From the NCBI RefSeq assembly GCF_055900595.2, contig NZ_CM148325.1: DNA of 64,000 nt, one strand, 5' to 3'. The position numbers were made by a program. Of this stretch, positions 53,656 through 55,187 are shown piece by piece (the stretch's first letter is position 1; each line of letters starts with the position of its first letter).

Positions 53656-55187
53656 TAATGATTTCTCGCGCGGGCAATCTTGCCCGCGCTTCTGCTCTCC
53701 CGGCGTAACCCGGATTTGCCGCTTATACTTGTGGCAAATGGACACGTTCAGGGAGGCATCAAGTGAAGAAACTCACCGATAAGCAAAAGTCCCGTCTCTG
53801 GGAGCTTCAGCGTAATCGTAATTTCCAGGCCAGTCGCCGTCTTGAAGGCGTCGAGATGCCTTTAGTTACTCTTACTGCCGCAGAGGCTTTAGCGCGCCTT
53901 GAAGAGCTGAGGAGGCACTATGAGCGATAAATTCGGCGAAGGGCGCGATCCGTATCTTTATCCTGGCCTTGATATCATGCGTAACCGGCTGAACATCCGC
54001 CAGCAACAGCGGCTGGAACAGGCCGCTTACGAAATGACGGCGCTGCGTGCTGCGACCATTGAGCTTGGTCCGCTGGTGCGCGGTTTACCGCATTTGCGCA
54101 CTCTCCATCGCCAGCTGTATCAGGATATTTTCGACTGGGCGGGGCAACTGCGTGAAGTTGATATTTATCAGGGCGATACGCCGTTCTGCCACTTTGCTTA
54201 TATCGAAAAAGAGGGCAATGCCCTGATGCAGGATCTGGAGGAAGAAGGGTATCTGGTTGGCCTGGAGAAAACGAAGTTCGTCGAGCGGCTGGCACACTAC
54301 TATTGTGAAATCAACGTCCTGCATCCCTTCCGGGCGGGAAGTGGTCTGGCACAGCGGATCTTCTTCGAGCAACTGGCGATTCATGCTGGTTATCAACTGA
54401 GCTGGCAGGGTATCGAAAAAGAGGCCTGGAATCAGGCAAATCAGAGTGGGGCAATGGGTGATCTCACTGCGCTGCAGACGATATTTAGCAAAGTGGTAAG
54501 CGAAGCCGGGGAATCTGAGTAAAATAGCGCGGTTCTTTCGTACCGGAGCCGCCATGATCCTGCTTATTGATAACTACGATTCTTTCACCTGGAACCTCTA
54601 CCAGTACTTTTGTGAACTGGGGGCCGACGTGTTGGTTAAGCGCAACGATGCGTTGACGCTGGCGGATATCGACGCCCTGAAACCGCAAAAAATTGTCATC
54701 TCACCCGGCCCCTGTACGCCAGATGAAGCCGGGATCTCCCTTGACGTTATTCGTCACTATGCCGGACGCTTGCCGATTCTTGGTGTCTGCCTCGGTCATC
54801 AGGCAATGGCGCAGGCATTTGGCGGCAAAGTTGTGCGCGCCGCAAAGGTGATGCACGGCAAAACCTCGCCGATCACACATAACGGTGATGGCGTATTTAA
54901 GGGGCTGGCAGATCCACTCACCGTGACACGCTACCATTCGCTGGTGGTGGAGCCTGACTCATTACCGGAGTGCTTTGAAGTGACGGCCTGGAGCGAAACC
55001 CGCGAGATTATGGGGATTCGCCATCGCCAGTGGGATCTGGAAGGTGTGCAGTTCCATCCAGAAAGTATTCTCAGCGAACAAGGACATCAACTGCTGGCTA
55101 ATTTCCTGGAACGCTGATTTCTGATTGCCATTCAGTGATTTTTTATGCATATTTTGTGATTATAATTTCACATTGAGTTATGCGTAA

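Follow-up and report, generated by a model that had tools for sequence, protein, structure and literature searches.

The fic gene is the founding member of the Fic family. In the canonical AMPylation motif, HxFx[D/E]GNGR1xxR2, the acidic residue at position 5 coordinates Mg2+ and the first arginine (R1, position 9) binds the ATP phosphate. Canonical class I FicTA pairs are represented by VbhT/VbhA from Bartonella schoenbuchensis and Fic-1/AntF from Pseudomonas bijieensis (PDB 3SHG, 3ZC7, 8WT0), in which VbhT and Fic-1 AMPylate GyrB and are toxic. The closest described system is EcFicT/EcFicA of E. coli K-12 (PDB 5JFF, 5JFZ; Stanger et al. 2016, PMC5033356), which is the same locus as the one analysed here in an orthologous allele. 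In the K-12 structure the 55-aa YhfG forms two helices wrapped around Fic, with S24 and E28 in contact with Fic R146 (the R2 arginine); the 1:1 complex is stable, its Tm being 63 °C (PMC5033356). Neither auto- nor target-adenylylation by EcFicT was detected, even with the E28G variant of EcFicA, and the authors considered that ATP is probably not bound (PMC5033356). They further concluded that evolution within the subgroup has shaped a pocket to fit an unknown substrate, and described a cluster around the active site of 43 positions whose conservation is subgroup-specific (PMC5033356). A paper from 2026 still refers to the mechanism as elusive.

The window analysed here is a stretch of 64,000 nucleotides from contig NZ_CM148325.1 (RefSeq assembly GCF_055900595.2). 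A sequence-only reading of it had described a 55-codon, GTG-initiated yhfG with its stop codon 11 nt inside the start of fic, the pair being intact, embedded in the pabA-argD neighbourhood and toxin/antitoxin-like in architecture. All of this was borne out (Table 1). Both ORFs are full length, ppiA lies upstream with pabA and argD downstream, and the antitoxin gene comes first. Orthologous loci were collected from one genome per species, which gave 80 loci, all from Enterobacteriaceae and with Fic identities of 63-97%; together with K-12 and the window these make up 82 entries. The antitoxin-first arrangement and its 11-nt overlap are kept in 80 of the 82, and an identical 11-nt overlap was also found in two unrelated canonical class I pairs. 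With the fic Shine-Dalgarno sequence inside yhfG, translation of the two genes is likely to be coupled at the overlap.

Table 1. Features of the yhfG-fic locus and its surroundings, in positions of the window.
Feature	Position	Strand	Description
ppiA	53086-53658		Upstream neighbour of yhfG
GC-rich hairpin	53668-53689	+	Adjoins the ppiA stop, with UUCUGCUCU behind it; stem of 9 bp (-21.4 kcal/mol, z = -3.7), 0/200 shuffles fold as well
Conserved block TTGCCGCTTATACTTGTGGCAA	53716-53737	+	TATACT -10 element at 53724-53729, about 34 nt 5′ of the yhfG start codon
yhfG Shine-Dalgarno GGGAGG	53751-53756	+	6 nt 5′ of the GTG; AGGGAGG conserved in orthologous loci
yhfG (ecficA)	53763-53930	+	GTG start, 55-aa FicA-type small protein; Pfam/NCBIfam matches, 54/55 identical to PDB 5JFF chain B
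Inhibition motif S24-R25-R26-L27-E28-G29 of YhfG	codons 53832-53849	+	Fits [S/T]xxxE[G/N]
fic Shine-Dalgarno AGGAGG	53910-53915	+	Within the yhfG 3′ end, 4 nt 5′ of the fic ATG
yhfG/fic overlap ATGAGCGATAA	53920-53930	+	11 nt, fic start codon to yhfG stop codon
fic (ecficT)	53920-54522	+	ATG start, 200-aa class I FIC-domain protein; Pfam/NCBIfam matches, 97-98% identity to PDB 5JFZ/5JFF chain A
Degenerate FIC signature HPFRAGSGLAQR	54322-54357	+	Fic residues 135-146 (H135-R146)
pabA	54554-55117	+	Starts 31 nt 3′ of fic
argD	55203-56423		Downstream, beyond pabA

The identity of both proteins is clear from profile searches, and the pair lies far outside what chance would give. YhfG matches the Pfam family YhfG (PF10832, E=1.6e-24) and the NCBIfam equivalog PRK10204 (E=7.7e-38); in these profiles only YhfG family matches were returned and no DNA-binding domain was detected. 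Fic scores 51.9 bits with Pfam Fic (PF02661, E=1.4e-13), above the gathering threshold of 24, and 425 bits with the NCBIfam equivalog PRK10347 (E=2.8e-128), for which the cut-off is 181. The two proteins match both chains of the K-12 EcFicT/EcFicA complex (PDB 5JFF/5JFZ) at 97-98% identity. The DNA shows 100% identity to E. coli Z0117EC0005, and 5425 of the 5426 complete E. coli genomes carry the locus, annotated as yhfG and fic. The pair is the known, well-studied chromosomal yhfG-fic (EcFicA-EcFicT) of E. coli, and is already described rather than new. Fic carries the wild-type G55 and not the G55R substitution of the fic-1 allele. That yhfG might be a spurious small ORF was ruled out by the family matches, the solved structure and a dN/dS of 0.087.

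The sequence-only reading had also taken HPFRAGSGLAQR for the AMPylation motif of Fic, and here it did not stand. Compared with HxFx[D/E]GNGR1xxR2, HPFRAGSGLAQR retains the His, the Phe, both Gly and R2, and thereby the Fic/DOC superfamily core HxFxxGxGxxxR (H135, F137, G140, G142 and R146), whereas Ala139 stands in place of D/E, Ser141 in place of Asn and Leu143 in place of R1. Among the 82 loci, position 5 is hydrophobic in 80, the other two having Thr (Shimwellia) and Asp (Edaphovirga). Position 7 is Ser or Asn, with Thr in a single locus (S141 in the window), and the R1 position is occupied by L, I, M or V in 74 loci (L143 in the window). R1 is kept in eight basal loci only, namely those of Franconibacter, Dryocola, Cedecea, Shimwellia, Edaphovirga and three Enterobacteriaceae/Enterobacter isolates, and Edaphovirga alone has a fully canonical motif (HPFRDGNGRAQR). 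In the wider family, clustered at 50% identity, 121 representatives have the complete motif; 113 of them are canonical [DE]-N-R and 114 carry R1. The eight non-canonical representatives are mostly close relatives or fragments of EcFicT. Read residue by residue, HPFRAGSGLAQR is not an AMPylation motif, and Fic is most likely not an ATP-using AMPylase.

The inhibitory motif (S/T)xxxE(G/N), which the earlier reading had proposed to look for in cis or in YhfG, was sought by pattern search in both proteins. It lies in YhfG, as S24-R-R-L-E28-G29, and is absent from the whole 200-aa Fic. A class II or III Fic, which would carry the motif in cis, is ruled out by the lack of any match within Fic. The motif arises by chance in 3.4% of shuffles of the YhfG composition, and by itself is weak evidence. 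It is, however, intact and at the same position in 77 of the 82 orthologous loci. Moreover, a profile of YhfG sequences finds AntF (8WT0_B), the antitoxin of the canonical Pseudomonas Fic-1, with E=0.007 and aligned on the same motif. The residues that make the contacts in K-12 are identical in the window (YhfG S24, R25 and E28; Fic T40, Y67 and R146). Because the motif is found in YhfG and not in Fic, keeps its position, aligns with that of AntF and is placed by the K-12 structure, yhfG-fic is a class I Fic module in the classification of Engel et al. (as cited in PMC5033356). To judge by the 97-98% identity to K-12, the two proteins would form the physical complex here too, including the salt bridge between the antitoxin Glu and R2 that is seen in K-12.

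The order ppiA-yhfG-fic-pabA-argD is held in essentially all 80 species. Across the loci yhfG starts with GTG or ATG, preceded by the conserved AGGGAGG; the start is at the equivalent position or lies one codon further upstream. Median dN/dS values (pairwise Nei-Gojobori against the window) were 0.087 for yhfG, 0.091 for fic, 0.080 for pabA, 0.049 for argD and 0.031 for ppiA, with dS near saturation in many pairs and the values accordingly rough. Rough as they are, they safely show that purifying selection acts on the protein products of both yhfG and fic. Synteny and vertical inheritance characterise the locus across the 80 Enterobacteriaceae species, and Stanger et al. likewise noted its fixed chromosomal position, unlike that of mobile toxin-antitoxin pairs (PMC5033356). 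Mobility, a patchy distribution or a link to mobile elements is typical of type II toxin-antitoxin systems, although not strictly defining; here the pair occupied the same ppiA-pabA site in 80 species. Disruptions do exist, and fic is dispensable. E. coli MS 21-1 has its fic split by ISEc10 (IS21-family), and the literature describes fic knock-outs as viable. In the E. albertii type strain, the draft assembly shows yhfG with a nonsense codon (W13*) adjoining an intact fic. This was entertained as a natural antitoxin knock-out proving Fic harmless, and was downgraded, as nine other E. albertii chromosomes with identical Fic carry an intact 55-aa yhfG; W13* may be strain-specific or a sequencing error.

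Alignment across genera also revealed putative expression signals in the spacer between ppiA and yhfG. The hairpin directly after ppiA has a stem conserved in 14 genera and a variable loop. It is likely to be the ppiA terminator, which would set ppiA apart from the yhfG-fic unit; a terminator consensus scan did not list it, its T-run being short. Further downstream, TTGCCGCTTATACTTGTGGCAA is almost invariant over 14 genera within an otherwise variable spacer. A sigma-70 consensus scan upstream of yhfG found no promoter, and the TATACT block emerged from the cross-genus alignment only. In E. coli O157:H7, yhfG-fic is strongly RpoS-dependent (133- and 111-fold, PMC2907692), and the pair recurs in stress-induced gene sets. 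We infer that TTGCCGCTTATACTTGTGGCAA is the RpoS-dependent (sigma-S) promoter of yhfG-fic. At the other end of the pair, a consensus scan found no terminator-like site in the 31-nt gap between fic and pabA, which makes read-through likely, and fic and pabA are probably at least partly co-transcribed. Komano, Utsumi and Kawamukai reportedly linked fic to p-aminobenzoate/folate, and Tran and Nichols are said to have mapped pabA promoters in and upstream of fic; a search of the literature for a link between fic and PAB or folate found nothing usable. An Rfam scan of positions 52800-55300 on both strands returned nothing meaningful, the sole match being a chance U1 (E=0.95).

In our view the class I yhfG-fic operon is very probably a domesticated, vertically inherited module with non-AMPylating chemistry that is gated by YhfG. 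What the synteny, vertical descent and purifying selection suggest is domestication, whatever chemistry the module performs, rather than a mobile toxin-antitoxin system. The conserved promoter 5′ of yhfG, reported to be RpoS-dependent, would drive both genes and probably continue into pabA. The start/stop overlap with its internal Shine-Dalgarno sequence would couple translation, such that YhfG and Fic are made together. As demonstrated for K-12, and predicted here from the 97-98% identity, YhfG would wrap around Fic, the two making up a stable 1:1 complex, and with the end of its first helix would reach into the active site of Fic, where S24 and E28 would hold R146. Fic itself would descend from AMPylating FicT toxins: R1 and the metal-binding acid have gone, as has the Asn in this lineage, while the catalytic His is kept. 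It may now be a domesticated enzyme or regulator, acting in stationary phase on an unknown substrate through a reaction other than AMPylation, with YhfG still gating access to the active site. That it may be an enzyme turned to a new substrate is suggested by the conservation. Counting against this explanation is a review stating that ectopic EcFicT strongly inhibits the growth of E. coli (PMC10886550). If that is correct, some toxin-like activity remains. In later papers from the laboratory behind the primary paper (Harms 2015), the FicT toxins named as having been studied are VbhT, YeFicT and PaFicT only. Any toxicity of EcFicT is unlikely to act via AMPylation.

The growth inhibition in that review (PMC10886550) would be expected of a canonical FicTA toxin-antitoxin, in which free Fic would poison gyrase and topoisomerase IV by AMPylation, with labile YhfG as its neutralising partner. 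In architecture the two genes match a class I FicTA module, and homology links Fic with VbhT (E=4e-33) and with Pseudomonas Fic-1 (E=1.6e-48), both GyrB AMPylases. We nevertheless regard this account as very unlikely: three defining residues of the motif are missing, adenylylation by the K-12 protein went undetected even with the E28G antitoxin (PMC5033356), synteny and vertical inheritance of the locus extend over 80 species, and the E. albertii type-strain draft has W13* in yhfG beside an intact fic, although this could be a sequencing error. The degenerate motif, together with the absence of any known activity, would also fit a Fic that is catalytically dead, a toxin-antitoxin remnant kept only for DNA signals that serve pabA expression. 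Consistent with such decay are the tight linkage of fic to pabA, the ISEc10 insertion in E. coli MS 21-1 and the viability of fic knock-outs. A relic would hardly be expected to show the strong purifying selection seen in both proteins, where dN/dS is about 0.09 and the same as in pabA. Conservation also extends to the catalytic His, to R2, to the motif in YhfG and to the 43 subgroup-specific positions around the active site (PMC5033356), and we think it highly improbable, more so than an active toxin, that Fic is a relic.

An additional role for YhfG might be read from its residue 25. Beyond being an inhibitor, YhfG could be a subunit that provides the active-site residues R25 and E28 in trans, in which case the stable YhfG-Fic complex, and not free Fic, would be the working enzyme, for example a de-modifying one like the Fic-1-AntF deAMPylase. 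Arg25 (motif +1) is present in 73 of the 74 loci in which Fic has lost R1 and in none of the eight basal loci with R1, all of which have N, S, Q, C or T at the equivalent position. In six unrelated canonical class I pairs the equivalent residues are L, L, T, S, S and F (0/6 Arg), and AntF has Leu. In K-12, R25 contacts T40 and, through water, Y67, which flanks L143 at the R1 position (PMC5033356). S24 and E28 have been kept despite the loss of the AMPylation residues, and the K-12 complex is very stable (Tm 63 °C, PMC5033356). However, the covariation is probably one evolutionary event and has little statistical weight; E36A and F67Y in Fic arose at the node where R1 was lost and Arg25 gained. 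The pattern is not followed by Trabulsiella (SRRLER) and Intestinirhabdus (SYRLEG), and no activity of the YhfG-Fic complex has been reported in the literature. A working enzyme of this kind is unlikely. We are similarly doubtful that, in the EcFicT-like clade, the YhfG ‘antitoxin’ became an obligate catalytic subunit, with the complex active in stationary phase on an unknown reaction, possibly de-modification or one linked to pabA, and not a restrained toxin. A domesticated module gated by YhfG remains our preferred reading.

The practical message is a correction: where a FIC-like motif lies beside a small upstream ORF, the D/E, Asn and R1 positions should be checked before the protein is called an AMPylating toxin. 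Otherwise the finding adds little, since the YhfG-Fic complex has already been crystallised and the role of EcFicT-like proteins is a long-standing question that the window makes no more testable. It offers modest leads only, namely a rare pocket allele (V139A) and the link between YhfG R25 and Fic R1. The co-occurrence of YhfG Arg25 with the loss of Fic R1 is a small observation that goes beyond the literature consulted; it is compatible with an arginine supplied in trans, and is to be taken as a lead rather than as evidence.

With K-12 EcFicT/EcFicA the window shares its gene order, the 11-nt overlap, SRRLEG, the degenerate FIC signature and every subgroup-defining residue that was checked (A36, T40, Y67, F71, L143 and R146). 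Fic differs from that of K-12 at five native positions (H27R, I62L, A118T, V139A and M187T) and YhfG at one (S51R). The A139 allele is rare, being found in 12/5426 complete E. coli genomes, and E. whittamii has A139 too. V139A is a conservative change in the motif, inside the hydrophobic groove described for K-12, and is the sole unusual feature of this copy. With VbhT/VbhA and Fic-1/AntF the locus has in common the FIC fold and a small upstream [S/T]xxxE[G/N] protein whose Glu pairs with R2. However, VbhT and Fic-1 carry the full HPFx[D/E]GNGRxxR, whereas the Fic of the window is without D/E, Asn and R1, and AMPylation by its K-12 orthologue has not been detected. The locus is, moreover, vertically inherited and not mobile, and YhfG has Arg25 where AntF has Leu. 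FicT homologues from basal Enterobacteriaceae, which make up subgroup 1 of Stanger et al. and include those of Edaphovirga, Shimwellia, Cedecea and Franconibacter, occupy the same ppiA-yhfG-fic-pabA site and, Shimwellia excepted, have the same 11-nt overlap. They keep R1, E36 and F67 in Fic, and their YhfG is without R25.

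Residue 25 of YhfG, the putative antitoxin, was compared with residues 36, 67 and 143 of Fic across compared loci L001-L081 and the window. Arg25 was present in 73 of the 74 loci at which the first arginine of the FIC motif (R1, position 143) is replaced by a hydrophobic residue, against none of the eight in which Fic keeps R1. An equivalent of Arg25 was also missing from all six unrelated canonical class I pairs (L092-L097), as well as from AntF (8WT0_B), the antitoxin of a canonical Pseudomonas Fic-1. The gain of Arg25 alongside the loss of R1 is probably a single evolutionary event, and the correlation is therefore confounded by phylogeny. 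Within the inhibition motif itself, YhfG of Trabulsiella (three loci) reads SRRLER, with Gly replaced by Arg, and that of Edaphovirga reads STALDG, with Glu replaced by Asp. Edaphovirga is the only one of the species compared to have a fully canonical FIC motif.

Codon 139 of the window's fic encodes Ala at position 5 of the FIC motif (HPFRAGSGLAQR), Val being found here in K-12 and most E. coli. The Ala allele is rare: of the 5426 complete genomes of E. coli, just 12 had an exact match to its 41-nt context, which is a lower bound. E. whittamii shares the Ala. In the K-12 structure (PDB 5JFF/5JFZ), residue 139 lines a hydrophobic groove proposed as the pocket for an unknown substrate.

Coordinates of the features discussed; L-numbers denote compared loci.
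Feature	Sequence	Position	Strand
yhfG	window	53763-53930	+
fic	window	53920-54522	+
fic codon 139	window	54334-54336	+
yhfG with W13*	E. albertii NBRC 107761 draft (L004)	2844-3011	
fic split by ISEc10	E. coli MS 21-1, NZ_CP146670.1 (L091)	3500-5910	
RelE-family insert	Enterobacter sp. kpr-6 (L026)	3643-4429	opposite to fic
region downstream of fic	Dryocola boscaweniae (L063)	3600-6600	

Broken copies of either gene were also encountered. In E. albertii NBRC 107761, codon 13 of yhfG is changed from TGG to TGA and the adjoining fic is intact. This is either a strain-specific change or a sequencing error, because nine other complete E. albertii chromosomes (L082-L090) carry an intact 55-aa yhfG, their Fic protein being identical. 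The reverse is seen in E. coli MS 21-1, where an IS21-like element, ISEc10 (istA/istB), interrupts fic after approximately codon 80 and yhfG is intact; this human colon isolate is a natural fic knock-out.

Two proteins from Logan assemblies have YhfG joined in frame to Fic as a single ORF: P0001, which is 252 aa long and has 15 member sequences, and P0006, which is 233 aa long. The P0001 junction (...EELRVTMSDKF...) is consistent with a 1-nt deletion immediately 5′ of the overlap. If real and not an assembly error, such a fusion would place the inhibitory helix in cis, so that a Fic of class I became class II-like. A further protein, P0127 (1218 aa, representative library), is built from a 51-aa unit repeated in tandem about 24 times, with multiple matches to Fic residues 102-149, and appears to be an artefact of assembly or translation.

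In Enterobacter sp. kpr-6, two overlapping genes lie between fic and pabA, on the other strand: one encodes a toxin of the RelE family (PF06296, E=9e-37) and the other an HTH/MqsA-like antitoxin. This insert is a genuinely mobile toxin-antitoxin cassette adjoining the immobile yhfG-fic, and the same extra spacing (~840 nt) is found in L033. Among the complete loci examined, the fic-pabA link is broken only in Dryocola boscaweniae, where neither pabA nor argD was found within 3 kb downstream of fic and the gene that comes next encodes a RafY-like glycoporin (PF16966, E=3e-124).

The 11-nt overlap between antitoxin stop and toxin start recurs in two distant canonical FicTA pairs on metagenome contigs (L093 and L094), whose Fic proteins are just 37-40% identical. 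Its geometry thus appears, from these sequences, to predate the enterobacterial clade.
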